Virus record (IMG/VR): IMGVR_UViG_3300031566_000038
Source of the DNA: a virus
Reading direction: 5' to 3' (one strand)
DNA length: 56,620 nt
Shown: piece by piece, positions 15,623 through 49,201 of the stretch
Position numbering within the stretch: position 1 is the first letter of the stretch
How the letters are laid out: the number at the start of each line of letters is the position of its first letter
Made by a program: the position numbers and the translations under genes
The notes under the pieces: generated by a model
Databases searched by the model: none
What the model was told of the DNA's origin: nothing
The model's input: only the letters and a program-made list of their open reading frames with translations

Positions 15623-15958
15623 TCACTCCGCCCTCCTCTTAAAGCACTGGCTTCCGCTACGATCCATCTGAGGTGAGGACCAGTAAGCCCGGACGCACTT
15701 GAATCTTTCTACCCGCACCAAATCTTCCAAACTAAATTCTCGGTAGGGGTTGTCACGATCTTTAAAGCTTACCCAGATATTAGGACCGTCACTCAGAATA
15801 TCTACTACAGGAATTTCCATAACCAACAGCCCTTCGTGTTCAAGCTGTTTTAGGTATTCGAGAACGGTAGCTTTTAAAGCCTGTAGAACCGTGGGGGATA
15901 CCAGTTCGTACCTGAACCGATCAAAGATTTCATCAAGCTCTTCTTGACAGCCTATCAT
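15623..15958 (-). CDS. hypothetical protein
   Basis: 111-aa ORF overlapping the upstream stop by 4 nt. Confidence 0.45.
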   Translation of the reverse strand: MIGCQEELDEIFDRFRYELVSPTVLQALKATVLEYLKQLEHEGLLVMEIPVVDILSDGPNIWVSFKDRDNPYREFSLEDLVRVERFKCVRAYWSSPQMDRSGSQCFKRRAE

Positions 15959-16746
15959 TTTTTCATCTCTTCAAACTTTTTAAACAAATCGTTGTCTTCT
16001 TGATTTTGTTTGTCCGTTTTGGCCCAATTTATCCCTAACGATTTCCAAGTGTCTTGGTTCTTAAGATCTTTTTCTTCGGGGTATACAGGCTTCACCGCAC
16101 AATATTGGTGACCCTTCTTATCCACCCCGCCCCCGACGATCCTTAGATGATCTCCCGGTTTTGCGCCAGGCGGCACCCAAACCATTTTGATACCCCACAA
16201 AGTCTCAACCGAGATGTAGTCACCTTTCAGCATGATCTCAAGTTTGATATTCTCGTCTACAAAAACATCTAAACCCTTCACCGTGTACCTGGGGTGCTTT
16301 TCAGCGGTCACGGTAACCAAAGCATCCCCGGTTTGATTCAGGCATTTCTTCCCTTTGCGCTTTTCAACATGCCGGAACCCTGAGATAGAGCCCGGTGGAA
16401 GATCAAAAGCAAAGGTGACCGGCTCGAAGTCTTCCGACTTGATAGGTTCTAAGTTCGCACCCAAGGAAATTTGGTTGTAAGACACCACTAACCGAGTGCC
16501 GTAAAAGGCATCATTGAAGGTGGTAATCATCTGGATGTTGAAAGTTAAGTCCCGTACCGGACGGATGCTTTGCTTCCGAGCGTATGACGGGTCGGTGATC
16601 ATCCGATAAGCGTGGGTGACCTCCACAAACTTATCGGAATCACCACCTTGGTCTGGGTGGTGTTCCAAGCACAATTTACGCCAAGCCTTCCGAAGAGTGT
16701 CCGGCGAATCGTCAGGTTTACAACCCAGTACCTCAAAATAATCCAT
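15955..16746 (-). CDS. DnaJ-like co-chaperone (J domain + DnaJ C-terminal domains, no Zn-finger/G-F region)
   Basis: N-terminal J domain with the HPD motif (KLCLEHHPDQGGD). The C-terminal part (GDALVTVTAEKHPRYTVKGLDVFVDENIKL...LWG.IKMVWVPPGAKPGDHLRIVGGG) matches the DnaJ CTD I/II pattern. Confidence 0.7.
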   Translation of the reverse strand: MDYFEVLGCKPDDSPDTLRKAWRKLCLEHHPDQGGDSDKFVEVTHAYRMITDPSYARKQSIRPVRDLTFNIQMITTFNDAFYGTRLVVSYNQISLGANLEPIKSEDFEPVTFAFDLPPGSISGFRHVEKRKGKKCLNQTGDALVTVTAEKHPRYTVKGLDVFVDENIKLEIMLKGDYISVETLWGIKMVWVPPGAKPGDHLRIVGGGVDKKGHQYCAVKPVYPEEKDLKNQDTWKSLGINWAKTDKQNQEDNDLFKKFEEMKK

Positions 16747-17361
16747 TTAGTGTCCTGATTCGACCGGGATATCTAATTTCTCTAGGGTCTTTTGCATCGA
16801 CCGCTTTAAAATACCCTGCACCTTGTCTTGTGTAGTATTGTTAGGATTCGCTATCGTAGCTTTCAATTCGTGATCTTCGTTAGCTTCGGCGGCGGCCTTC
16901 TTTTCTGCCTGCCTTTTTGCTTCGACCTTCTCGATCCGTTTTTGGAAGACAAAACCCATGCCGCTAATCAAGTCTTCGGGCTTCACTACAAGGTCCACAA
17001 CCCCAGAAAAATAAGGTGGTACCGACGCCAAAGTATTAGAAACGGCTAACATAGGCTTGCCAAACACAGCCGCTACGGCCATGAAGTGAACGTTGGGTGA
17101 GCTATCTAAATCTAAAACCAGGATATCTGATTCTGATATGCCCCAAAAATCTTGCCGCATAGAAGTTTCCCAAGGGTGGGGGACGACCGGGGGCTCTGTT
17201 TCAAAATGCACTAATATTTCCCGGCCCTTCTCGTTGTTATAATCGTATTGATTATGTAACAGAATTACGTTTTCTGTTCGTTCCACTACATCTAATATAG
17301 GTGAGTGCTTACCCGATTGATCCCGCTCAGATGCTACAAACACCACCAATTTCTTTTCCAT
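16747..17361 (-). CDS. hypothetical protein (possible nucleoside 2-deoxyribosyltransferase-like fold)
   Basis: 204 aa. ISESDILVLDLDS...AVAAVFGKPMLAV loosely resembles the NDT/Rcl motif. Low confidence. Confidence 0.5.
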   Translation of the reverse strand: MEKKLVVFVASERDQSGKHSPILDVVERTENVILLHNQYDYNNEKGREILVHFETEPPVVPHPWETSMRQDFWGISESDILVLDLDSSPNVHFMAVAAVFGKPMLAVSNTLASVPPYFSGVVDLVVKPEDLISGMGFVFQKRIEKVEAKRQAEKKAAAEANEDHELKATIANPNNTTQDKVQGILKRSMQKTLEKLDIPVESGH

Positions 17362-24991: not shown

Positions 24992-25145
24992 GGTGTCTCC
25001 AAAAGTAAATGTGTAACAGAACTCTCTTACATAATTTGTACTACATACGATTATTATCTACTACACATTTCTAACTTAAAAGTTCAAATGCTCTCACTTA
25101 TTTTTAAAGGTAGAGGATACAAAATTCAGGGGTGGGGGAAGAAAA

Positions 25146-27073: not shown

Positions 27074-27146
27074 GCCAGGGTAGCTCAGTAGGTAGAGCAC
27101 TAGGTCGAAACCCTAGGTGTCAGCGGTTCAAATCCGCTCTTCGGCG
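27074..27146 (+). tRNA. tRNA-Phe(GAA), atypical acceptor stem
   Basis: Cloverleaf read by hand. D-arm GCTCAGTAGGTAGAGC; anticodon stem CTAGG/CCTAG with loop TCGAAAC (anticodon GAA); T-arm AGCGG-TTCAAAT-CCGCT. The acceptor stem GCCAGGG/CTTCGGC has one A-C mismatch and two G-U pairs. No encoded CCA. Confidence 0.5.
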
Positions 27147-27159
27147 CTAAATTATTTAA

Positions 27160-27231
27160 TGGGTAGTAGCTCAGTGGTAGAGCGCAAGTCTGATAAACTT
27201 GAGGTCGGCTGTTCAACCCAGCCCTACCCAA
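27160..27231 (+). tRNA. tRNA-Ile(GAT)
   Basis: Perfect cloverleaf. Acceptor TGGGTAG/CTACCCA; D-arm GCTC-AGTGGTA-GAGC; anticodon stem CAAGT/ACTTG with loop CTGATAA; T-arm GGCTG-TTCAACC-CAGCC. No encoded CCA. Confidence 0.8.
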
Positions 27232-27367
27232 CTATTTTTACTATGGAGGTCTTAAGAAAATGAATACTACGACAACGCTAAGGCAAACCGGTAAGTCCTT
27301 CAAGAAATCTACCAAAGAGATTCTTCTCAAACATAAATAGCCCTCTATACATAGTCTGATATCTTAT

Positions 27368-27456
27368 GGGCTAGTTGTCGCTAGTCCATCCTGCTGGAGA
27401 TGTAGAGCATGGCACTTTTAATGCCAGGGTCGCAAGTTCGAATCTTGTCTAGCTCT
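27368..27456 (+). tRNA. tRNA-like element, Lys(TTT)-type anticodon arm, aberrant D region (possible pseudogene or unusual tRNA)
   Basis: Acceptor GGGCTAG/CTAGCTC (6 Watson-Crick + 1 G-U). Canonical T-arm GCAAG-TTCGAAT-CTTGT. Anticodon arm TGGCA-CTTTTAA-TGCCA. About 16 extra nt, including the palindrome CTAGTTGTCGCTAG, sit where the D-arm should be. A T-run follows. Confidence 0.35.
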
Positions 27457-28985: not shown

Positions 28986-29306
28986 GTGAGCGAGCATAAA
29001 GATTTTATCGTTGCTAAGACCTTGGAAGCTTTCGAGCGGTTCGATCCGGTGGTGGAAGAAACGTTACCCCAAGAGCCAGGGTCGCCTTCGGTGGCCCCGG
29101 ACGGTGTGCCTGTCTTCGACTTAGAAACGATGAGAAATCTGGAGCTTCACAAAGATAAAGTGATCCACGCCCCTGATTTTGAAGCGTTTATGGATCTCTT
29201 ACAAAACGTAGCTACGGAAGAGAAACTAAACCCGGCTCAAGACTTTGACAAGTTAGCCTCGGTGTTGAACCGGTTTAGAATAGACGAAGGGCTGGACCCA
29301 CTTTAG
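28986..29306 (+). CDS. hypothetical protein
   Basis: 106-aa ORF from a GTG start. Confidence 0.4.
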   Translation: MSEHKDFIVAKTLEAFERFDPVVEETLPQEPGSPSVAPDGVPVFDLETMRNLELHKDKVIHAPDFEAFMDLLQNVATEEKLNPAQDFDKLASVLNRFRIDEGLDPL

Positions 29307-29566
29307 TATCTAGCTCGTGGTTGTCTTTCTTGCGCTTCGTTGACTTTGATGGTTCTGCCGTCGAATTCCTTGCCGTCTAATCCGTGCATGGCGTCGTCAG
29401 CGTCCTGGTCGCTAGAGTAGGTTACAAAACCAAACCCCCTAGACCGATCTGTCTCACGATCGAAAATCACCTTTGCTTCGGTGACTGTACCGTATTGCTC
29501 AAATTTAGCTAACAATGAATCATTGTCAGTGCCCCACGAGAGACCACCCACGAATAACTTTTTCAT
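29303..29566 (-). CDS. RRM-type RNA-binding protein (RNP-1/RNP-2)
   Basis: RNP-2 KLFVGGL and RNP-1 RGFGFVTY in an ~87-aa single RRM. The chosen ATG has an AAGAGGA RBS 8 nt upstream. The ORF-track N-terminal extension (MFCKIKRRLQFQVKR) to 29620 was trimmed; its ATG 9 nt upstream (29575) sits directly against that same RBS. Confidence 0.65.
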   Translation of the reverse strand: MKKLFVGGLSWGTDNDSLLAKFEQYGTVTEAKVIFDRETDRSRGFGFVTYSSDQDADDAMHGLDGKEFDGRTIKVNEAQERQPRARY

Positions 29567-29687
29567 CTCTATCATCCTCTTAACCTGAAATTGAAGTCTT
29601 CTTTTGATCTTACAGAACAAGGCTAGACTGTCAACTACACATTTTCATTACCTTTTCCTACTACAACAAACCAAGGTTAGTTTGTAT

Positions 29688-31422: not shown

Positions 31423-32355
31423 TTAAGTTTTCGTATTCAGCTTAGCCATAAATTCCGCTCCTTGGATGCCGCCGTAGCCGTAATAGAGATCTTTACCCGA
31501 TCGTCCGAGGTCTATAGCGGTTTCTTGCAACGTGTTCTGTAATAGATCACGCATAGCCGCACGTCCGATGGAGGGGTTCTTTTTCAAGAGTAGAGAAGCC
31601 CCGAGCGCTAACAAACCAGCTACGGTCGGTGAAGCCATCGACGTACCCTGCAATTTTCTGTAGGTTTTGCTTAGATAAGTAGAATAGCAAGAAACACCTG
31701 GGGCTGCCACCGCTACGTGATCGCCGTAATTTGAAAACCACGCTCGATTTTCGTTCTTGTCGATAGCCGCTACGGCTAAAACCCCGTCGTAAGCTGCCGG
31801 GTAAGAATCACTTTGGGTGTTTTCGTTGCCCGCCGCCGCTACGAGTAACACCCCACGGGCGTGAAGTTCCTTACAAATTTGAGCTTGCTCGGGAGAATAG
31901 TGAGTCGAACCCAAAGACATATTGACGATGTGCGGATCGGGTTGGGCGGCTACCCACCTCAAAGCGGCAGTGGTGTAATGGGTATAACCAGAACCGTTGT
32001 CGTCTAAGGTTCGAAGCGAAGTGATTCTTGAACTAGGAGCCAAGCCGACCCCAGCGGCTCCAATCTTACCGCAACACCAAGTTCCGTGGCCGTTGCCGTC
32101 GTTAGGGTTGTTGTTGCCCTGGATAAATGAATACGCCTTCACAGGGGAGTGAGCAAAAGCGAAGTGGTCGGGGGTACACCCAGAGTCTATTACATAAACA
32201 TTTACCTTTTCACCTTTGACCCCGTACTTAGCCCACAAAGAAGGGATCTTGAGTTGATCGAAATCCCAAAGGGTCTCGCCTACCGACAAGCCTTCCACGG
32301 TAGGCCCGTCCCAGATGGGGTTGATGCTAATTTTATCCTTAGCTTCCTCTGTCAT
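31423..32355 (-). CDS. subtilisin-like serine peptidase (S8), no signal peptide
   Basis: Catalytic triad contexts VIDSG (Asp), HGTWCCG (His) and GTSMASP (Ser). Confidence 0.75.
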   Translation of the reverse strand: MTEEAKDKISINPIWDGPTVEGLSVGETLWDFDQLKIPSLWAKYGVKGEKVNVYVIDSGCTPDHFAFAHSPVKAYSFIQGNNNPNDGNGHGTWCCGKIGAAGVGLAPSSRITSLRTLDDNGSGYTHYTTAALRWVAAQPDPHIVNMSLGSTHYSPEQAQICKELHARGVLLVAAAGNENTQSDSYPAAYDGVLAVAAIDKNENRAWFSNYGDHVAVAAPGVSCYSTYLSKTYRKLQGTSMASPTVAGLLALGASLLLKKNPSIGRAAMRDLLQNTLQETAIDLGRSGKDLYYGYGGIQGAEFMAKLNTKT

Positions 32356-33715: not shown

Positions 33716-34495
33716 ATGAATCAGCTAAGCGGCGAGTGTTTGCTCATCGGGGATGTTGCGGGTCAATACGAAGCTTTGATGAGCCTCTTAAAGTCCTGTC
33801 CTGACGTTCTCCCGGTGAGTGTTGGTGACATGATCGACCGAGGGCATGACTCCAAAAAGGTAGTCGACTTTTTCAGAGACCACGGCAAAAGGTTGAAAGG
33901 CAACCACGAGCATATGTGCGTGGACTTCATCCAAGATAGAAAATATTACGGCAGTGGTATCTGGTTTCGTAACGGGGGCGAAGCGACGGTAGAATCCTAC
34001 TTAGGTGAATCAATCCGAGATTTAGAGACTGAATTTTGGAATGAATACGAAGACGGCTCTGCACAGGATTTCAACAACGAGATCAGAGAAAAGCTAAAAG
34101 CTACCGGGTTGGACAAAGAGCTAGATGATTTGCCCTTGTACTTTGAACTCGACGGTGGTGGTATCGTCACCCACGCCCCGATCCGAGCCGGGTTGACGTT
34201 GGATACCGTTTGCGAATTAGGGGTGCGAGGTTTCACCAGCTTCAGTAAAGCAGAAGCCAAAGCCGACCAGTCAGTGATCTGGAACCGCTACCCGCCCTGC
34301 AAAATGGAAGGCAAGTACCAAATCTTTGGCCATAACTCGATGTGGGGTCATTGCTTTATGAAGCACGACGAGGACTCGAATTTATCAAGGGACAATTTTA
34401 AAGAACCTTGGGGTGTTTGCTTGGATGATTCCCGAGCAATGAGATTAACCGCTATGCACTGGCCGTCCAAAAAGATCTATCAAGAAGTATTTTGA
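33716..34495 (+). CDS. PPP-family Ser/Thr phosphatase (calcineurin-like metallophosphoesterase)
   Basis: GDVAG...GDMIDRG...GNHE motif series. Confidence 0.7.
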   Translation: MNQLSGECLLIGDVAGQYEALMSLLKSCPDVLPVSVGDMIDRGHDSKKVVDFFRDHGKRLKGNHEHMCVDFIQDRKYYGSGIWFRNGGEATVESYLGESIRDLETEFWNEYEDGSAQDFNNEIREKLKATGLDKELDDLPLYFELDGGGIVTHAPIRAGLTLDTVCELGVRGFTSFSKAEAKADQSVIWNRYPPCKMEGKYQIFGHNSMWGHCFMKHDEDSNLSRDNFKEPWGVCLDDSRAMRLTAMHWPSKKIYQEVF

Positions 34496-42242: not shown

Positions 42243-44813
42243 ATGAGCATTCGATTTTCCGGCATTTTGACGATCGATACCGTAACGGTAGTAACATCGC
42301 CTTATGTAGTAGAAGCTACATTTTCCGATTCGAGGGGCTATTTCGATGAAACTTTGATTGCTGTCGATAACGTGATTATCGACGCAAACAAAAATCGTTA
42401 TGTAGTCACCGACGTTACTAGCGTTACACCTTTGATCCTAGAATTAGAGTGGGACGACCTCGATGCGCCCGCCCAACCCACCACGGGCGATGGTATTATC
42501 GGTGTGGTTTCTTCCGCTAGGGAGCTTTTAGAAGTTACCCCGGACGCACCAACCGGTGTGGCAACCGCAGCCCGTAACATCGATTTCTTCAAAAACTTAG
42601 ATACCACACCAGATCTAGTTACCGGACCCGCTGGAGTCGCCGGAGCTACCGGCTTTGGCTTCGGCCAACAAGGTCTCACCGGCCCTTCCGGCGCTACAGG
42701 TATCGCAGGTATCATAGGACCACAAGGTGGCACAGGGCTAGCGGGTGTGGCTGGTGTGGCGGGAGCCGTCGGGACCAAAGGCGCTACCGGTCTCGGTGGG
42801 ACCAAAGGCGCTACCGGTACTAAAGGCAGCAACGGCACCCCAGGTGTTGACGGTGTAACAGGCCTTACCGGAGCCGTAGGAGCAATCGGAAGCACTGGTA
42901 TGGTAGGTTCCCAAGGATCTCAAGGTCTCACTGGAATTGACGGGACCAAAGGTGACACCGGAGCGGGCGGTTTGGTTGGCGACACCGGAGCGGGCGGCCA
43001 ACAAGGCCTAACCGGATTATCAGGTTCCACTGGTCTTCAAGGCGTCCAAGGCAACATAGGATCGCAAGGTACGACCGGAACAAGCGGTGCTACAGGATTA
43101 CTAGGTGGCACAGGTTTAATAGGTCAAACAGGGGTTTCGATAACCGGCCCACGAGGACACACCGGACCTTTCGGTCCTACAGGTTTAGCGGGAAGCACCG
43201 GAAGCCAAGGTGATACGGGTTCTCTGGGACTAAAAGGCGATACAGGCGTAGCGGGGACCAACGGCACCACCGGAGCGGGCGGCCAACAAGGGCAAACGGG
43301 AGCGTTAGGTCAAACCGGAGCCGATGGGGGTGTAGGCCAACAAGGTATCACAGGATTCGGCGGTACTACAGGCTTACTAGGAAGCACCGGAGCAACAGGA
43401 ATCCAAGGGTCCGTAGGCCAACAAGGTCTCACAGGCCCCGCAGGTGTAGGCGTAACAGGATCACAAGGTCAAACAGGTGCCGTAGTTCAAGGTGATACTG
43501 GAGTTTCGATAACCGGTCAGACCGGTTTGGCAGGACCGACGGGTAGTCAAGGATCGACAGGCCCGTTAGGTCTTGTTGGAGCCACCGGAGCAAGCGGCAC
43601 CAAAGGCGATACAGGTACGATCGGCGTACAAGGAAATACAGGCCTTAGTTTGCAGGGAAGCACAGGCCTTCAAGGTTCACAAGGTACAACCGGATTCAAT
43701 GGTAACGCTGGCTCTACAGGCGTAGCTGGCTTGCAAGGTGATACGGGTACAATAGGTGGTCAAGGCTCTGCCGGTGCTACAGGCGTTAACGGTCTTCAAG
43801 GGATAACTGGCGGTGTTGGTATTCCCGGTGAAACCGGAACACAAGGTGTAGTAGGAAATGCGGGAGCAACGGGTGTTGTCGGTACTCAGGGTATAACAGG
43901 ATTAAATGGTACTACAGGTATAGTAGGTAGTACAGGTGCTACTGGAATTAGCGGAGCCACCGGAGCCTTTGGAGTAATCGGAGCTACCGGAAGTCAGGGC
44001 ACCACGGGCGTAGCTGGAATCCAAGGAGCCCAAGGTTCCACCGGAGCCCAAGGCCAACAAGGAAATACCGGCCCAATAGGCACCACAGGTTCTATGGGTT
44101 CGCAAGGACAGCAAGGTCTGACCGGTGGACTCGGGCTCCAAGGTTTGACGGGATTATTAGGCGGCACTGGCGTACAAGGTGGCGTAGGAGTTGATGGTAC
44201 CACCGGGGTGAAAGGGCCTACAGGAGTACAGGGAGCGACGGGTCAACGAGGCTTCACAGGCATAGGCATTATAGGACCGCCAGGACCGATAGGCTCCACC
44301 GGATTCACTGGAACTACAGGTGTTCCCGGCGAAACTGGTGCTGGTTTACAAGGCCAAACCGGAGCGGGGGCCACAGGTCCAGAGGGTCACACAGGTGTCC
44401 AAGGAATTGCGGGAGCCACCGGCCCACAAGGTATAGCCAGAACCGCTTACAACTGGACGATCTCCAATAGTTCAGGTTTAATCGTTGGTACTTATATCGT
44501 TTACTTTGCGATGGAAGCGGTGACGATCGACGAGGTCGTGGTGACGATGATTAATTCAGGTACAGGCGGCACCGGCGCAACCCACTTTGAATTCTATAAA
44601 TTGGGAGCTTCCATTTTACCGACTTCACCACCGGTCGGTACCGGCGACTTCACGGTCATCATCCCGGCAGCGGGCGTGACGGTTATGAACGGCACCAAAG
44701 TAACCACCTTAGCTTTAGGTTTGGCCCTAAACGAATCTTTGGTAGTAGGGATCTCAGCGGCCCCGGACACCCCAGGTAATAACGCTTTGATTTCGATTCG
44801 AGCTTTGTTGTAG
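42243..44813 (+). CDS. collagen-like triple-helix repeat protein (fibre-like)
   Basis: About 600 aa of Gly-X-Y repeats rich in T/Q/A/V, from roughly residue 125 to 730, flanked by non-collagenous N- and C-terminal domains. Confidence 0.75.
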   Translation: MSIRFSGILTIDTVTVVTSPYVVEATFSDSRGYFDETLIAVDNVIIDANKNRYVVTDVTSVTPLILELEWDDLDAPAQPTTGDGIIGVVSSARELLEVTPDAPTGVATAARNIDFFKNLDTTPDLVTGPAGVAGATGFGFGQQGLTGPSGATGIAGIIGPQGGTGLAGVAGVAGAVGTKGATGLGGTKGATGTKGSNGTPGVDGVTGLTGAVGAIGSTGMVGSQGSQGLTGIDGTKGDTGAGGLVGDTGAGGQQGLTGLSGSTGLQGVQGNIGSQGTTGTSGATGLLGGTGLIGQTGVSITGPRGHTGPFGPTGLAGSTGSQGDTGSLGLKGDTGVAGTNGTTGAGGQQGQTGALGQTGADGGVGQQGITGFGGTTGLLGSTGATGIQGSVGQQGLTGPAGVGVTGSQGQTGAVVQGDTGVSITGQTGLAGPTGSQGSTGPLGLVGATGASGTKGDTGTIGVQGNTGLSLQGSTGLQGSQGTTGFNGNAGSTGVAGLQGDTGTIGGQGSAGATGVNGLQGITGGVGIPGETGTQGVVGNAGATGVVGTQGITGLNGTTGIVGSTGATGISGATGAFGVIGATGSQGTTGVAGIQGAQGSTGAQGQQGNTGPIGTTGSMGSQGQQGLTGGLGLQGLTGLLGGTGVQGGVGVDGTTGVKGPTGVQGATGQRGFTGIGIIGPPGPIGSTGFTGTTGVPGETGAGLQGQTGAGATGPEGHTGVQGIAGATGPQGIARTAYNWTISNSSGLIVGTYIVYFAMEAVTIDEVVVTMINSGTGGTGATHFEFYKLGASILPTSPPVGTGDFTVIIPAAGVTVMNGTKVTTLALGLALNESLVVGISAAPDTPGNNALISIRALL

Positions 44814-44970: not shown

Positions 44971-45963
44971 ATGACTGCTACAAAAAAAGTTACCGACAAG
45001 AACACCAAGAAACAGATCTTAGATGTTTTGGCTGACACCCAAGCCGAACTCCGGGCTGAGAAGTCTAAGAGCGGGGTAAACAAGCGTGCTGATTTGAAAG
45101 TTGTACAAGAGCAAGAGGTCGTGGAAAAGGTCAAGGCAGCTTCGGTCGAAGAAACGATCAAGAACTTCCGGGTCGAGCTTAACAAAGGCCTAGCCGGTTT
45201 CGAACAAAAGCTCTTAGAGAAGCAAGAAGAGTTCGAAAATATCCAAGAAGCGATCGATATTCAAAAGACTAGCCTCAAAGACATCCACGAGATCAGCCAA
45301 GAAGCCGACACGCTGGATGCTTTGCTAAGAGCCCAAGAAAAACAAGAAGAAGAATTCAATAATTCCATGAATGAAACTCGGTTAGTATGGGGTAAAGAGC
45401 AACAAGACCATGCTAAGGAGCTTCAAGAAAAAGAAGCCGAGCTTCGGAAGACCCGCACCAGGGAGCAAGAAGAGTATTCTTACGATCAAAAGCTCAAAAT
45501 CAAGAAGGACAAGGACACTTACGAGGCTGAAAAAGCTGTAAGAGAGAAAGCTCTTAAGGACCAAGAGCAAATCGTTTTGGCGGATCTCAAAATAAGAGAA
45601 GATGCTTTGATCGCCAAAGAAGAAGAAGTCGCTGCGCTGAAAGCTACGGCTGACAAATTTGAAGAAGTTAAGCTAGCAGCGGTAGAAGAAGCGGTAGAAA
45701 GCGCTTTGGGTCGTGAAAAAAGCTCCCGGCACTTCGAAGTTTCAGCTTTGAAGAAAGATCAAGAGTCTTCAGCCAAGATTCTCGACCACGAAAACAAAAT
45801 CTTGACTGACCGAGTAGCCGAGCTTACCGCACAAAACACCGACCTAAACAGCAAACTGCAAAACTCTTACGCTGAAATTCGTCAGGTCTCTGAAGCTGCC
45901 ATCACAGGCGCAGCACAATCTAAAGTTTATGTGACCAACGAATCATCCAAGACCGGTAAATAG
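44971..45963 (+). CDS. E/K/Q-rich coiled-coil protein
   Basis: 330 aa. Heptad-like charged repeats throughout. Confidence 0.6.
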   Translation: MTATKKVTDKNTKKQILDVLADTQAELRAEKSKSGVNKRADLKVVQEQEVVEKVKAASVEETIKNFRVELNKGLAGFEQKLLEKQEEFENIQEAIDIQKTSLKDIHEISQEADTLDALLRAQEKQEEEFNNSMNETRLVWGKEQQDHAKELQEKEAELRKTRTREQEEYSYDQKLKIKKDKDTYEAEKAVREKALKDQEQIVLADLKIREDALIAKEEEVAALKATADKFEEVKLAAVEEAVESALGREKSSRHFEVSALKKDQESSAKILDHENKILTDRVAELTAQNTDLNSKLQNSYAEIRQVSEAAITGAAQSKVYVTNESSKTGK

Positions 45964-45981
45964 ATCTAGTTGAATTTAAAC

Positions 45982-46016
45982 AAAAGGCCTTTGCTTTAAA
46001 AGTGAAGGCCTTTTTT
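45982..46016 (+). terminator. rho-independent terminator
   Basis: Stem AAAAGGCCTT/AAGGCCTTTT with a 13-nt loop, then a T-run. Confidence 0.6.
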
Positions 46017-46270
46017 AATTAAAAAGAAATTCACCTTCGAACCGTTGCGGCTCAACGCATTAATGAGATGTAGTAGAACACGTTATAGAAACTCCTTGCG
46101 GTGTTAAAATCCGATGTTAGATTATAACTATTCCGAACGTTCAGGCGGAGGGTACGGGGAAGGGCTACAGTCCTTTTTTTTAGTGGGGAAGTCCCCCTTT
46201 TTCCTTCAAGGTCTATTCGGAACTTACGCTCCCGGTGTGGGAGTTAACAATTGAAAAGAGGGAGACTCTT

Positions 46271-47383
46271 ATGATTCTCAAGCGCAAACCTTATCGTGTG
46301 TCGATCGTCCTTGGTCGATTTCAAGTTTTCCACAAAGCCCACAAAAGATTATTAGACGAAGCGTTCACGTTGGCGGATATCGTTTTGGTTGTTTTAGGTT
46401 CGCACCAAGCGGCTTTGAACATCAAAAACCCGTTCACCACCGACGAAAGAGAAGAGATGATCCGCAAGGTCTACCCCGACCGAGATATCCATTTCGTGGT
46501 GGTGCCGGATCATATGTACGACGACGACCGCTGGCTCCTAGAAGTTCAAGCCAAGGTCCGGCAAAAGATTACGGCGCTTGGGATCGAAACTGAAATTGTC
46601 ATCCGTCCTTGGGAAGATCGAGCGGTAGCCCCTCCCAAAGTGAATAAAGATATTTGTATCTGCGGCTACTACAAAGATTCGAGTTCTTATTACCTCGACT
46701 ACTACAAAAACATATGGGGTTTCGAAACCCACGTAGCTTCTATCAACATTTCTAGCACCGACATCCGAACCGCTTTGTTTACCGATGGGCGAGTCCAGCC
46801 TGAGCAAAGTAATTTGCATTGGGCGCAACAAGTTCCCGACCCGGTCGTGGATTGGGTCTCTGCTAATTTTTTAGGCACTCCAAAGTTTGACTACCTCAAA
46901 GAAGAGTACGATTTCCTTGTTGATTATAAGGAGAAGTGGAACCCTACGGGCGATCGGCAATGGATCACCGGGGACGCTATAGTGGTTCAAAATGGTTTGG
47001 TCTTGATGGTGATTCGAAAAAATATGCCTGGCAAGGGGTTGTGGGCTTTACCTGGCGGTTTCATCAAGAAAACCGAAACGATCGACAACGGGGTGCTTAG
47101 GGAACTCAAAGAAGAGACCGTGATCGGGATGCACAAACACGAGCTTCGCAAACACTTCGTGGGTAGTGCAGTGTTCGACCACCCTGACAGAGACCTCCGG
47201 GGTAGGATCGTAACTCACGGGCACTTCTTCAAGCTGGGGAAGGACATCCCGCTACCGCACGTCAAAGGTAGCGACGATGCTTTGAAAGCTTTTTGGGTGC
47301 CGATAAACGAAGTCATCCAGAACGCCCACAACGTCTACGGCGATCATATCCATATCCTAAATTATTTGTCTCGTTTCAACTAA
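46271..47383 (+). CDS. nadM: bifunctional NMN adenylyltransferase / Nudix hydrolase (NadM/NatV-like)
   Basis: N-terminal LGRFQVFHKAH (GRFQPFH nucleotidyltransferase motif). Nudix box GGFIKKTETIDNGVLRELKEETV. GAGGGAGA RBS. Confidence 0.75.
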   Translation: MILKRKPYRVSIVLGRFQVFHKAHKRLLDEAFTLADIVLVVLGSHQAALNIKNPFTTDEREEMIRKVYPDRDIHFVVVPDHMYDDDRWLLEVQAKVRQKITALGIETEIVIRPWEDRAVAPPKVNKDICICGYYKDSSSYYLDYYKNIWGFETHVASINISSTDIRTALFTDGRVQPEQSNLHWAQQVPDPVVDWVSANFLGTPKFDYLKEEYDFLVDYKEKWNPTGDRQWITGDAIVVQNGLVLMVIRKNMPGKGLWALPGGFIKKTETIDNGVLRELKEETVIGMHKHELRKHFVGSAVFDHPDRDLRGRIVTHGHFFKLGKDIPLPHVKGSDDALKAFWVPINEVIQNAHNVYGDHIHILNYLSRFN

Positions 47384-47393
47384 GAGGTCTGTT

Positions 47394-48770
47394 ATGTCTG
47401 ATTTTTACAGCTTTTTAAGCAATCTTATTTTTCTCACTGACTCTTACAAGGTCTCCCACTGGCGTCAATACCCGAAGTCTATCACCAAGATGTTATCTTA
47501 TTTTTCCAGCCGGGGTGGGTTGTACCCTGAAACGGTAGCGAATGTTTTGCTCCACTACCAAATGAAGCGGTTGGAAGGGGTGCAAATCACCCAAGAAAAG
47601 ATCGAAGAAGCGGCGGAACTTTTTAAATTTCACTTCGGTGATGAAAGCATTTTCAACCGTGCGGGTTGGGAATATATCCTAAAGGAGCACGGTGGTCGGC
47701 TACCGTTGAAGATCAAAGCGGTCGCCGAAGGCACGGTAGTACCCCACGGCAATGTTTTGATTGTGGCTGAAAGCACCGATCCTAAATGTCCTTGGGTCAC
47801 CAACTACTTCGAAACCTTCATGGTGCAAAATTGGTACCCTTCCACGGTGGCTACTTTTTCGTACACGGCTAAGAATCTTATCAACCGCTACCTCGAAGAA
47901 ACCGGTGACCCTGCCGGTTTGCCTTACAAATTGCACGACTTCGGGGTCAGGGGCACTAGCAGCATGGAATCGGCAGCGATCGGTGGGGCGGCTCACCTCC
48001 TAAATTTCTCTGGCACCGACAACCTACCCGCTATGGCTTTGCTCAAAAAGTTCTACGGGGGGTACGTGGGGAACTCTATTCCGGCAGCGGAGCACTCCAC
48101 AGCGTGCTCTTGGATCAAAGAAAAAGATTTCTTCCGTCACATGATCGAAGAATTCCCAGGGATGGTAGCGGTGGTGTCCGATACCTATGACATCTACGAA
48201 GCTTGCCGGGTTTGGTCCACCGAGCTTAAAGACCAAGTTCTGGCCCGAAAAGACGGCTGTGTGGTTATCCGGCCTGACTCGGGTGACCCGCTAGAAGTCT
48301 TGGAAAAGATCTTCGAGATCCTAGGGGAGAACTTCAAGAACGAGATCGTGGTAAACAAAAAAGGTTACAGGGTATTACCACCCCAGGTGCGAGTGATCCA
48401 AGGAGATGGAGTAGACATAGAAGCTATCGGCGATATCTTAGAGATGCTGAAGTTGAAAGGTTGGTCGGCAGACAATATAGCTTTCGGCTGTGGTGGTGCT
48501 CTTTTACAAAAATTGAATAGGGACACTAATAAGTTTGCTTTCAAAGCGTCCGCCGTTTTGGACAACGGGGTATGGCGGGAAATAAGGAAGAACCCGGTCA
48601 CCGACCCCGGTAAAGCAAGCAAAGCGGGCTTATTAGATCTTGTCAAAATCGACGGAACCTTTACTACCACTTCACCTTCGGGGAATTCATTGCTTGCGGT
48701 AGTTTTCGAAAATGGTATGGTGCCGCCGAGCGATAGTCTGGAAACTATTCGCACCCGCTTAGTGGTCTAA
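47394..48770 (+). CDS. nadV: nicotinamide phosphoribosyltransferase (NAMPT/NadV)
   Basis: 458 aa. HDFGVRGTSSMESAAIGGAAHLLNFSGTDN is typical of NAMPT. Lies 10 nt after nadM. Confidence 0.8.
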   Translation: MSDFYSFLSNLIFLTDSYKVSHWRQYPKSITKMLSYFSSRGGLYPETVANVLLHYQMKRLEGVQITQEKIEEAAELFKFHFGDESIFNRAGWEYILKEHGGRLPLKIKAVAEGTVVPHGNVLIVAESTDPKCPWVTNYFETFMVQNWYPSTVATFSYTAKNLINRYLEETGDPAGLPYKLHDFGVRGTSSMESAAIGGAAHLLNFSGTDNLPAMALLKKFYGGYVGNSIPAAEHSTACSWIKEKDFFRHMIEEFPGMVAVVSDTYDIYEACRVWSTELKDQVLARKDGCVVIRPDSGDPLEVLEKIFEILGENFKNEIVVNKKGYRVLPPQVRVIQGDGVDIEAIGDILEMLKLKGWSADNIAFGCGGALLQKLNRDTNKFAFKASAVLDNGVWREIRKNPVTDPGKASKAGLLDLVKIDGTFTTTSPSGNSLLAVVFENGMVPPSDSLETIRTRLVV

Positions 48771-48895
48771 TATCTTACTGGTTGACTCGGGGGTTTCTAG
48801 TTTAGAAGCCCTCGACATTTTTTATCTAGTACCCCCTTGATTAAAGTCTCTTACATTTGTTATAAGTGCTGTCGCCAAAGGGCTGTAACGTACAA

Positions 48896-49201
48896 ATGGA
48901 GCGAAAAATGCTTAATACATCAAGAGAACCCCGCCGAAAAATCGTAGCTGTTTCAGAGATCGCCGATCGCAAAGCCGCTAACCAAGAATTGAAGGCAATT
49001 ATAAACGAGAGCCAAGAAGAAAGGGCCGCTTTCGACGCCGACCGCTCCTCTGTCGTGACCTCGGTAAGGTTCAACAAAGAACTGTTATCGGAGATTAAGC
49101 TAGCAGCGAGCTATGAAAACATGCCCTATCAAGGGTGGCTTCGCAGCATGGCCAAAGAAAATGCCCGGACTGCGATCCTTAATCGCTTATCCCCCACTTA
49201 A
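48896..49201 (+). CDS. possible ribbon-helix-helix / BrnA-like DNA-binding protein
   Basis: C-terminal SVRFNKELLSEIKLAASYENMPYQGWLRSM resembles the BrnA antitoxin pattern. No cognate toxin gene is adjacent. Confidence 0.35.
   Translation: MERKMLNTSREPRRKIVAVSEIADRKAANQELKAIINESQEERAAFDADRSSVVTSVRFNKELLSEIKLAASYENMPYQGWLRSMAKENARTAILNRLSPT

Follow-up and report, generated by a model that had tools for sequence, protein, structure and literature searches.

The 56,620-nt stretch of DNA analysed here (IMG/VR virus record IMGVR_UViG_3300031566_000038; the whole stretch is referred to as the window) carries on its plus strand two genes for the salvage of nicotinamide adenine dinucleotide (NAD+). 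The first (nadM) codes for a nicotinamide mononucleotide (NMN) adenylyltransferase (NMNAT) fused to a Nudix domain, the second (nadV) for a nicotinamide phosphoribosyltransferase (Nampt). Their enzymatic activities are predicted from homology. The pair is preceded by a conserved leader RNA of two small hairpins (P1 and P2), which was overlooked in the first-pass annotation of this DNA and is the sole unusual feature of the pair. Taken together, the two genes quite probably represent an operon of the phage NAD+ reconstitution pathway 2 (NARP2) type, which would rebuild NAD+ under the control of the leader acting as a pathway-specific translational operator.

General features of the NAD locus

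The following features were identified at the locus, listed in 5' to 3' direction:

45982..46019, plus strand: intrinsic-terminator-like hairpin (15-bp stem, 3-nt loop) with U run, 5' boundary of the NAD unit
46069..46081, plus strand: TGTAGTAGAACAC, a copy of the over-represented 9-mer TGTAGTAGA, about 200 nt ahead of the nadM start
46228..46244, plus strand: leader hairpin P1, G-CUCCC [GGUGU] GGGAG-U
46256..46270, plus strand: leader hairpin P2, AAGAG [GGAGA] CUCUU, abutting the AUG at 46271
46271..47383, plus strand: nadM/natV-like gene, ATG at 46271, stop codon ending at 47383, 370 amino acids (aa)
47394..48770, plus strand: nadV gene (Nampt), 458 aa
48787..48824, plus strand: intrinsic-terminator-like hairpin (13-bp stem) with T run, 3' boundary of the bicistron

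The genes for NadM and Nampt form a tight bicistron flanked by two strong terminator hairpins. They are separated by a gap of 10 nt, and the stop codon of nadM shares nucleotides with the Shine-Dalgarno (SD) sequence of nadV (AAGAGG). Translation of the two genes is probably coupled. An in-frame GTG at 46235 upstream of nadM lies inside the conserved leader hairpin and finds no support as a start codon among the homologues. The upstream terminator hairpin (45982-46014) folds with -18.5 kcal/mol (z -4.84; none of 200 shuffles as stable) and the downstream one (48787-48815) with -19.1 kcal/mol (z -4.5). The first-pass annotation had already noted a strong terminator ahead of the pair. This hairpin is real but, located 19 nt past the stop codon of a 330-aa gene (44971-45963) and about 255 nt ahead of the NAD pair, it ends the upstream gene and is not the pair's own.

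A scan for sigma-70 promoters yielded counts no better than chance. The 9-mer TGTAGTAGA is present in 19 exact copies in the window as compared to about 0.4 expected from length, including those at 25065 (minus strand), 37887 (plus strand) and 46069 (plus strand). Three of these copies are intergenic and all aimed at the next gene, 11 are coding-strand copies within genes, and the remaining five occur on the opposite strand. Allowing for up to three mismatches, the 13-mer TGTAGTAGAACAC occurs 45 times in the window versus 12.6 ± 3.2 times in shuffles, and variants of the 9-mer are kept upstream of the NAD pair in the related loci L011 and L014. These elements could be a promoter or another DNA-level signal.

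Just past the operon terminator, a small open reading frame (ORF; 48866-49201, plus strand) shows weak, below-cut-off similarity to CopG antitoxins (2.2e-4); the same slot is occupied by other small genes in relatives.

Predicted NadM-Nudix protein

The ORF at 46271-47383 is, judged from profile and motif matches, a NadM-type NMN adenylyltransferase (aa ~10-170) fused to a Nudix domain of the ADP-ribose-pyrophosphatase type (aa ~235-360). It matches the Pfam families PF01467 (CTP_transf_like, 8.7e-12) and PF00293 (NUDIX, 3.4e-15), PHROG 395 (5.3e-57) and all NCBIfam models for the bifunctional NMNAT/Nudix protein PRK05379 (best score 274 bits versus an equivalog cut-off of 409). The closest solved structures are those of the NadM-Nudix proteins from Synechocystis (2qjo, 2.6e-62) and Francisella (2qjt, 1e-43). 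Both nucleotidyltransferase motifs (GRFQVFHKAH and ISSTDIR) are present, and residues G15, R16, F17, Q18, F20, H21, H24, T163 and R166 are invariant in an alignment of 14 sequences. The Nudix box is intact (G263 FIKKT E269 TIDNGVL R277 E278 L K E281 E282 T V I), with the Gly of the 'xGU' element replaced as it is in 2qjo. HKAH in place of HxGH (Gly to Ala) is common to the closest relatives, whereas an insert of about 20 aa in the NMNAT domain (aa ~103-126) is otherwise found only in the nearest homologue (P0122). The NMNAT-Nudix identity that the first-pass annotation had based on GRFQVFH and the Nudix box is borne out by the Pfam and PHROG families, the match to 2qjo and the intact motifs.

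Predicted Nampt and its distinction from Namat

The ORF at 47394-48770 is assigned as a true nicotinamide phosphoribosyltransferase, its activity being predicted. It matches PF18127 (NAMPT_N, 9.2e-30) and PF04095 (NAPRTase barrel, 2.3e-50), exceeds the cut-off of NCBIfam PRK09198 (523 versus 405 bits) and aligns to human and rat NAMPT chains in the PDB with about 441-455 bits over residues 10-454. Identity to rat NAMPT is 50.7 % across 442 aligned positions. Out of 23 positions compared with rat NAMPT, only I11L, V242I and S275A differ; Tyr18, Phe193, Arg196, Asp219, His247, Arg311, Asp313, Gly353 and Asp354 (rat numbering) are conserved, as are Gly383, Gly384, Arg392, Lys400, Lys415 and Lys423. 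The corresponding residues in window numbering are Y18, F183, R186, D209, H234, R293, D295, G337, D338, G367, G368 and R376. The roles of these residues, including phospho-His247 and the nicotinamide specificity of Asp219, we take to be those described in the NAMPT structural literature in mammalian numbering.

The NAMPT identity claimed in the first-pass annotation is thus upheld by the profiles, the PRK09198 score and the aligned catalytic residues. All families of the profile search it had proposed (NAMPT; CTP_transf_like plus NUDIX) were matched and the catalytic residues of NAMPT as well as NMNAT are present on alignment. The predicted gene set for the conversion of nicotinamide via NMN to NAD+ (NARP2) passed every sequence test applied. 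The nominally best Nampt matches, P0002 and P0003 (745 and 729 aa), consist of a full Nampt joined to a second, partial copy; both derive from contigs of about 2.3 kb and are probable assembly artefacts rather than relevant fusions.

Nampt has a homologue, Namat, with which it has the catalytic core in common (PMC12774641). In the related pathway NARP1, Namat takes the ADP-ribose pyrophosphate (ADPR-PP) made by Adps. Because of this homology, and because the 56.6 kb searched for Adps are part of a contig of 85 kb or more, the window gene could in principle code for a Namat partnered by an Adps encoded beyond the window. Adenine selectivity of Namat is ascribed to a clamp formed by a longer beta1-beta2 loop and two aromatic residues of the clamp helix, F392/Y396 in SPbetaL1 Namat (PMC12774641). 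The window protein was compared with Adps-linked Namat of Escherichia phage warpig and Staphylococcus phage IME-SA2 and with Nampt-type references from Mx1, nt-1 and bacteria. It is 46-57 % identical to the Nampt-type proteins versus 32-35 % to Namat, and its beta1-beta2 loop is short as in Nampt. At the clamp columns, whose matching to F392/Y396 is ours and not given by PMC12774641, the window protein has FGCGGALLQKLNRDT (Ala and Lys), whereas the aligned aromatics are found in Namat of warpig / IME-SA2 (GVGSYTYQYMTRDT / GVGSFSYQFNTRDT; GSYTYQY / GSFSYQF). No Adps homologue was detected by tblastn of the 56.6-kb window with two Adps proteins (best E 0.17). Identity pattern, short loop, missing clamp aromatics and lack of Adps in the window indicate a Nampt of NARP2, using phosphoribosyl pyrophosphate (PRPP), and not a Namat. 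As the gene, moreover, sits in an operon with an NMNAT gene, and NARP1 and NARP2 together were found in no phage (10.1101/2024.02.11.579819), a Namat at this locus is exceedingly improbable.

Distribution of the gene pair

Homologues of Nampt/Namat were found in 2017 phage records and those of NadM-Nudix in 479. The order NadM then Nampt, adjacent or nearly so, occurs in phages DSS3P8, LucasX, BUCT-ZZ01, Milchi, K64-1, Cp1R7A-A1 and others, and in IMG/VR, Nampt is encoded downstream of NadM relatives on the same strand within 3 kb at 68 of 80 loci, which renders the window pair an ordinary new member of a known module. According to Iyer et al. (PMC9503650), every phage with NadM also has NadV. 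Among phage proteins, the best match to Nampt is about 50 % identical and that to NadM 39 %; with metagenomic proteins, identities reach 57-59 %. No close relatives of NadM were found in IMG/VR by single-protein search; the distant ones were reached only by profile search. All that the gene pair contributes is one more NARP2 carrier, from a very divergent phage lineage not in culture.

In some related viral loci, further genes are inserted between nadM and nampt: a Macro gene (PF01661, 1.4e-8) in L018, L070, L073, L088 and L089 and a NADAR gene (PF08719, 6.8e-49) in L018 and L073. Such insertions would extend the operon towards ADP-ribose processing.

Structure and conservation of the leader RNA

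Across eight lineages, the NadM proteins of which are 46-59 % identical to that of the window, a block of about 50 nt ending at the AUG is conserved far beyond the proteins. P1 in these lineages has the consensus G-CUCCC[GGYGA]GGGRG-U, with one compensatory change, four U-G variants and 100 % of the positions paired. The P2 loop holds the SD sequence GGAG (46261-46264 in the window) and the 3' arm of P2 touches the AUG. Its stem covaries among the eight lineages (UAUAGG/CCUAUG, AAAGG/CCUUU, UAAGG/CCUUA) and in further relatives (ACAC/GUGU, AAAA/UUUU). Minimum-energy folds of four instances, including the window, consist of exactly the two hairpins. Taken as a whole, the 312-nt leader shows no unusual stability (z -1.24), and the stretch 46150-46212 is unstructured (z +0.95).

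A first covariance model built from the eight lineages gave weak matches at the same position in distant IMG/VR loci. Hairpins of at least 5 bp (at least three of them G-C) with an R-G-N-G-N loop, located within ~130 nt upstream of NadM, were found in 31 of 80 such loci (NadM 33-41 % identical), as compared to 1.3 % of random windows drawn from the same loci. In most of these 31 loci, a short SD hairpin, e.g., ACAC[GGAGA]GUGU or GCAAAA[GGAGU]UUUUGC, and then the start codon follow. Stem sequences are wholly different between loci, whereas both loops and the C-G pair that closes P1 are constant: among 65 model matches, 33 P1 loops read AGAGA and 13 AGUGA, and the closing pair is C-G in 58 of the 58 scored. 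P1 loop and closing pair remain fixed where the proteins are only 33-40 % identical.

In an alignment of 22 sequences, both-side changes were observed for eight out of nine pairs, with a covariation of 0.895 versus 0.178 in shuffles (0/500), which collapsed once partners were slid by 1-3 columns; the same picture emerged from the alignment of the 65 matches, with covariation up to 1.05 versus about 0.2 in shuffles. Both alignments lean to structure by construction, and more weight is therefore given to the position, scan and independence tests.

Gene specificity and distribution of the leader RNA

When both strands of 666 kb were searched with model R2, 65 matches (E<=1) were retrieved, all of which are on the gene strand. 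Among the matches in IMG/VR loci, about 54 of 57 lie directly before the start of NadM (~34) or Nampt (~20), the copies before Nampt occurring where nampt is apart from nadM. The window contains a single match (46229-46269, 37.6 bits). With model R3, which contains no sequences of the window lineage and was run with filters off, the leaders of the eight lineages represent the top eight matches; the window leader is recognized with 17.5 bits (E ~0.009), and the next match in the window scores 10.2 bits. The pattern CAGAGAG-N8-32-CACGGAGAGTG matched 43 times in 2.9 million IMG/VR contigs, including 26 matches immediately before NadM-Nudix and eight before Nampt ORFs. In bacterial and archaeal genomes, the same pattern gave at least 121 matches at no fewer than 120 loci; none of the matches listed precedes NadM or Nampt and most are stemless, i.e., they are chance matches.

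In cultured phages (filters off), seven of seven matches in 60 kb immediately precede NadM or Nampt. In Ralstonia phage phiRSL1, a lone 5-bp C[AGAGA]G hairpin is located 5-6 nt before the AUG of each gene, and Synechococcus phage B3 has weaker leader variants ahead of both genes. Variants precede Nampt in Klebsiella phage K64-1 and NadM in Citrobacter phage Ci1, and Mesorhizobium phage Cp1R7A-A1 has a leader ahead of NadM with both loops reading GGUGU, as in P1 of the window. The motif was detected neither in KVP40-like nt-1 nor in Mx1, even at E<=5 with filters off, nor in two NARP1 loci; LucasX and BUCT-ZZ01 have no match before their NAD genes, and DSS3P8 has weak ones only.

Loci L033/L036 harbour a further copy of the motif (2215-2253) before an ORF of 213 aa (starting at 2259; no Pfam match) just upstream of nadM, which may be an additional member of the regulon.

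Against Rfam 15, the 255-nt leader of the window gave chance-level matches only. The models for the NAD+-I, NAD+-II and guanidine-II riboswitches did not match at E<=10 in 45900-46330 or in the leaders of L049 and L034, nor did they reach the gathering score across 20 loci. In the literature searched on NARP2 and on RNA motifs and riboswitches of NAD+ salvage genes, no description of the leader was found, although one elsewhere is possible. The leader apparently is a specific, covarying cis-element of phage NadM/Nampt genes that has not been described before, the copy in the window being divergent but recognizable.

Predicted pathway and possible role against NAD+-depleting defence

In the proposed pathway, Nampt would form NMN from nicotinamide and PRPP, and the N-terminal domain of NadM would convert NMN and ATP to NAD+. 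The C-terminal Nudix domain would cleave ADP-ribose (possibly also excess NAD(H)) to AMP and ribose-5-phosphate, from which host PRPP synthetase could provide PRPP again. The pathway would rebuild NAD+ from the leftovers of NAD+-cleaving effectors (TIR, SIR2, SEFIR), or top up NAD+ for replication. These activities are predicted from homology. NARP2 has been defined as a Nampt-clade gene plus an Nmnat gene within one phage genome (10.1101/2024.02.11.579819), and the window has both genes adjacent to each other on a phage-like contig. In the same study (10.1101/2024.02.11.579819), NARP2 of phage KVP40 restored infection versus several NAD+-depleting systems; it raises NAD+ also without a defence system, uses PRPP and overproduces NAD+, and the operon was too toxic for cloning in E. 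coli. By analogy with these experiments, the window pair may have an anti-defence role.

Alternatively, the pair could be an auxiliary metabolic module only, supplying NAD+ for phage replication with no special role against depletion. The genes of KVP40 and the NAD+ genes of jumbo phages were first interpreted in this way (PMC11662467; PMC9503650), and this reading agrees with the raised NAD+ in defence-free cells and with the absence of any other visible anti-defence gene next to the window pair. Supply for replication is, however, compatible with an anti-defence role and does not exclude it, and KVP40 NARP2 did rescue infection from several NAD+-depleting systems. Furthermore, the ADP-ribose-processing Macro and NADAR genes inserted between the two genes in related loci argue for a conflict centred on ADP-ribose. 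A purely metabolic function is regarded as somewhat unlikely.

Proposed mode of action of the leader RNA

Placement of the element before each of the two NAD+ salvage genes argues that NAD+ reconstitution is regulated after transcription, which is plausible in view of the PRPP consumption and NAD+ overproduction by NARP2 and the toxicity of the operon. The leader most likely is a pathway-specific translational operator or a small riboswitch. Since P2 encloses the SD sequence and abuts the AUG, its stabilization should block initiation. A factor recognizing both of the similar loops would stabilize P2 and shut out the ribosome, thereby limiting a costly, PRPP-consuming pathway. This factor would most plausibly be a dimeric enzyme of the pathway, exerting autogenous control; a small ligand is less plausible. 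Both loops follow the same pattern (C-RGNGA-G) and are unable to pair with each other, which suits a dimeric binder, and the single-hairpin form in phiRSL1 is more in keeping with recognition by a protein than with an aptamer. In 18 of 19 two-copy loci, both copies have the same last base in the P2 loop, which could reflect a shared trans partner or mere common ancestry. Autogenous translational control, as at the thrS operator or by T4 gp43, is ranked first because NadM-Nudix and Nampt alone always accompany the motif and both are oligomeric in solved homologues; a guanidine-II-like riboswitch is placed second and a passive presenter of the SD sequence last.

Action at the RNA level is preferred to a DNA operator, as complementarity is all that the stems retain, G-U pairs occur often, the loops are asymmetric and only the sense strand carries the motif. 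P1 was considered as a DNA palindrome or operator and rejected for its asymmetric loop, its frequent G-U pairs and the location of all matches on the sense strand. Likewise rejected was masking of the SD sequence by the CUCCC arm of P1, for which the covariation of L014 (eight-lineage alignment, by inspection) gives no support. Binding by CsrA calls for GGA in both loops, one of them over the SD sequence; GGA is present in P2 (GGAGA/GGAGU) and absent from P1 (AGAGA, AGUGA, GGYGA).

The closest longer relative, L011, codes for a 63-aa CsrA homologue (PF02599, 6495-6686) located 1.3 kb upstream of the NadM-Nampt operon. CsrA homologues are also present in L012 and L013, and there is no counterpart at that position of the window.

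A small tandem-hairpin riboswitch sensing a metabolite (NAD+, NMN, nicotinamide, ADP-ribose or PRPP) and gating translation of both genes would agree with the two hairpins, their conserved loops, freely covarying stems and variable linker as well as the SD sequence in the second hairpin. It would also agree with the link to two genes of one pathway across phages of Ralstonia, Synechococcus, Klebsiella and Mesorhizobium hosts, a spread which argues against a host-specific protein, and feedback would pay where NARP2 expression is costly or toxic. On the other hand, the single 5-bp hairpin per gene in phiRSL1 is too small for known types of aptamers, and the models of NAD+-I, NAD+-II and mini-ykkC are unmatched. 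Kissing of the loops as in guanidine-II was rejected, since the purine-rich character of all loops precludes pairing, and inspection shows no covariation of loop position N from one hairpin to the other. A riboswitch of this kind is considered unlikely. The same holds for the broader proposition of a new riboswitch class or a ligand-dependent autogenous operator, sensing either NAD+/NMN or the debris ADP-ribose/nicotinamide; if true, the NAD+ reconstitution genes would be switched on only once defence depletes NAD+, representing a built-in sensor of immune attack.

The hairpins could also be passive, presenting the SD sequence or stabilizing the mRNA and being co-transferred horizontally with the genes without any regulator. 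Initiation can benefit from an SD sequence exposed in a loop, mRNA can gain protection from a stable 5' hairpin, and the stems are short. Yet the P1 loop and its C-G closing pair are fixed while stems change and proteins fall to 33-40 % identity, the element is duplicated before the second gene where the genes are apart, and it is essentially absent elsewhere in the ~0.67 Mb searched. A merely passive function appears quite improbable.

Several points weigh against an operon for NAD+ reconstitution controlled by a translational operator. With respect to the leader, the short stems count against it, and its fold in the window does not significantly exceed shuffles in stability (z -1.7). The percentage of paired positions is partly circular, since the hairpins in alignment A5 were picked by regex and alignment A6 was fitted to the model. 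The window leader is, in addition, atypical (P1 loop GGUGU instead of AGAGA; the above 17.5 bits, E ~0.009, in the independent model), and the absence of the motif from nt-1, Mx1, LucasX and BUCT-ZZ01 implies that it is not required for NARP2. With respect to the proteins, NadM scores below the NCBIfam equivalog cut-offs (274 versus 409 bits), has HKAH instead of HxGH and contains the 20-aa insert, and the anti-defence role leans on one characterized homologue of about 44 % identity (KVP40 type).

Should the leader bind a pathway enzyme or metabolite, it would offer a handle on how phages time their anti-defence response and also a small portable regulatory part. The cultured carriers phiRSL1, B3, K64-1, Cp1R7A-A1 and Ci1 make leader variants experimentally accessible.

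Genomic context

No near-identical DNA was detected among 50,697 phage records. The identical Nampt protein is encoded on 18 metagenomic contigs (ENA, JGI, Logan; longest ~87.5 kb) with identical neighbours, and the NAD pair occupies the same locus in related contigs. Genes in the window include those for a DnaB-type helicase, a sliding clamp, a 5'-3' exonuclease, a methyltransferase and a beta-helix protein, and most large ORFs of the window have no match in Pfam or PHROG. Helicase, clamp and exonuclease, along with the tRNAs listed below and the many ORFans, point to a phage context. The window originates from a very divergent, probably large, uncultured phage. Further features are:

15955-16746, minus strand: DnaJ with C-terminal domain
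27074-27448, plus strand: tRNA-Phe, tRNA-Ile and a weak third tRNA-like match
29303-29620, minus strand: RRM_1 RNA-binding protein (8.3e-22)
31423-32355, minus strand: subtilase
42243-44813, plus strand: collagen-repeat protein, 856 aa

Two other genes of the window had been suggested in the first-pass annotation as candidates for testing in the NAD+ context. For the ORF at 16747-17361, proposed to be nucleoside-deoxyribosyltransferase-like, no such signal was obtained from Pfam or PDB even at E<=10; its best Pfam match is Phasin (0.021), and PDB returned only chance matches to ribosomal protein S14 (E >=0.47). The PPP phosphatase (33716-34495) matches Metallophos (1e-6) and resembles lambda phosphatase (1g5b, 1.6e-5), but it lies 12 kb off in an unrelated stretch. 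The proposed links of both genes to NAD+ find no support. In recent work, it was Macro-domain phosphatases attached to NARP1 that were tied to NAD+ conflict (10.64898/2026.01.28.702374); neither Macro nor NADAR homologues were found within the window.

Near the 5' end of the window, a full-length HEARO RNA (RF02033, the IscB-associated omega-RNA family) is located at 212-452 on the minus strand (E 6.8e-25; 122.5 bits, the gathering score being 83). It immediately follows, on the 3' side, an ORF of 293 aa (454-1335, minus strand) without Pfam match. An IscB-like ORF downstream of this RNA, if any, would extend past the window end. A protein of 884 aa (2489-5143, plus strand) contains Major Vault Protein domains (MVP_shoulder, 3e-27 across the whole profile; Vault_3, 3.7e-9; SPFH/Band_7, 4.2e-5) and has no match in PHROG; a vault homologue is unusual for a phage-like contig.

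Comparison with known systems

NARP2 of KVP40 (NadV plus NatV) and the window pair have protein families, domain architecture, predicted reactions and location in a phage genome in common, whereas identities to cultured phages including the KVP40 type are about 44 % for Nampt and below 40 % for NadM. The KVP40 arrangement named in the first-pass annotation applies with regard to the two families. In the window, NadM is directly followed by Nampt, an adjacency typical of many other phages, whereas the annotation of KVP40-like nt-1 shows no NadM-like gene up to 4 kb from Nampt. The two-hairpin leader likewise is present in the window operon and absent from nt-1. Among cellular proteins, bacterial NadM-Nudix (Synechocystis slr0787, 2qjo; Francisella, 2qjt) aligns over its full length with the same catalytic motifs, the phage-borne window protein differing by HKAH instead of HxGH and the 20-aa insert in the NMNAT domain. 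Bacterial and vertebrate Nampt (Xanthomonas, 7yqo; human/rat, 2g95) similarly share full-length alignment and catalytic motifs with the window protein. NARP1 (Adps plus Namat) employs a homologous phosphoribosyltransferase fold and leads to the same end product NAD+, in contrast to which the window has no Adps and no Namat-type clamp residues and needs the NMNAT step.

The guanidine-II riboswitch (mini-ykkC) consists of two small tandem hairpins with conserved loops and closing pairs and a variable linker, the second hairpin being located by or over the SD sequence. The leader resembles it in its tandem hairpins, conserved closed loops, variable linker and second hairpin at the SD sequence, and differs by R-G-N-G-A pentaloops instead of ACGR tetraloops, by the lack of loop complementarity and by its association with NAD+ salvage genes. 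The NAD+ riboswitches of class I (nadA motif) and class II (pnuC motif) are likewise cis-RNAs ahead of genes for NAD+ metabolism, yet of other architecture, and their models are unmatched at E<=10 in the window and two other instances. Protein-bound operators include those of E. coli thrS (bound by dimeric ThrRS), the replicase hairpin bound by MS2 coat protein, and those of T4 gp43, RegA and CsrA. Like these, the leader places one or more hairpins at the SD sequence and AUG, and its two similar sites suit a dimer. P2, e.g., ACAC[GGAGA]GUGU, resembles a CsrA-type GGA loop, whereas the P1 loop (AGAGA/AGUGA) is devoid of the GGA required by CsrA. In contrast to all of these operators, the leader goes with two genes of a single pathway in many phages unrelated to one another.

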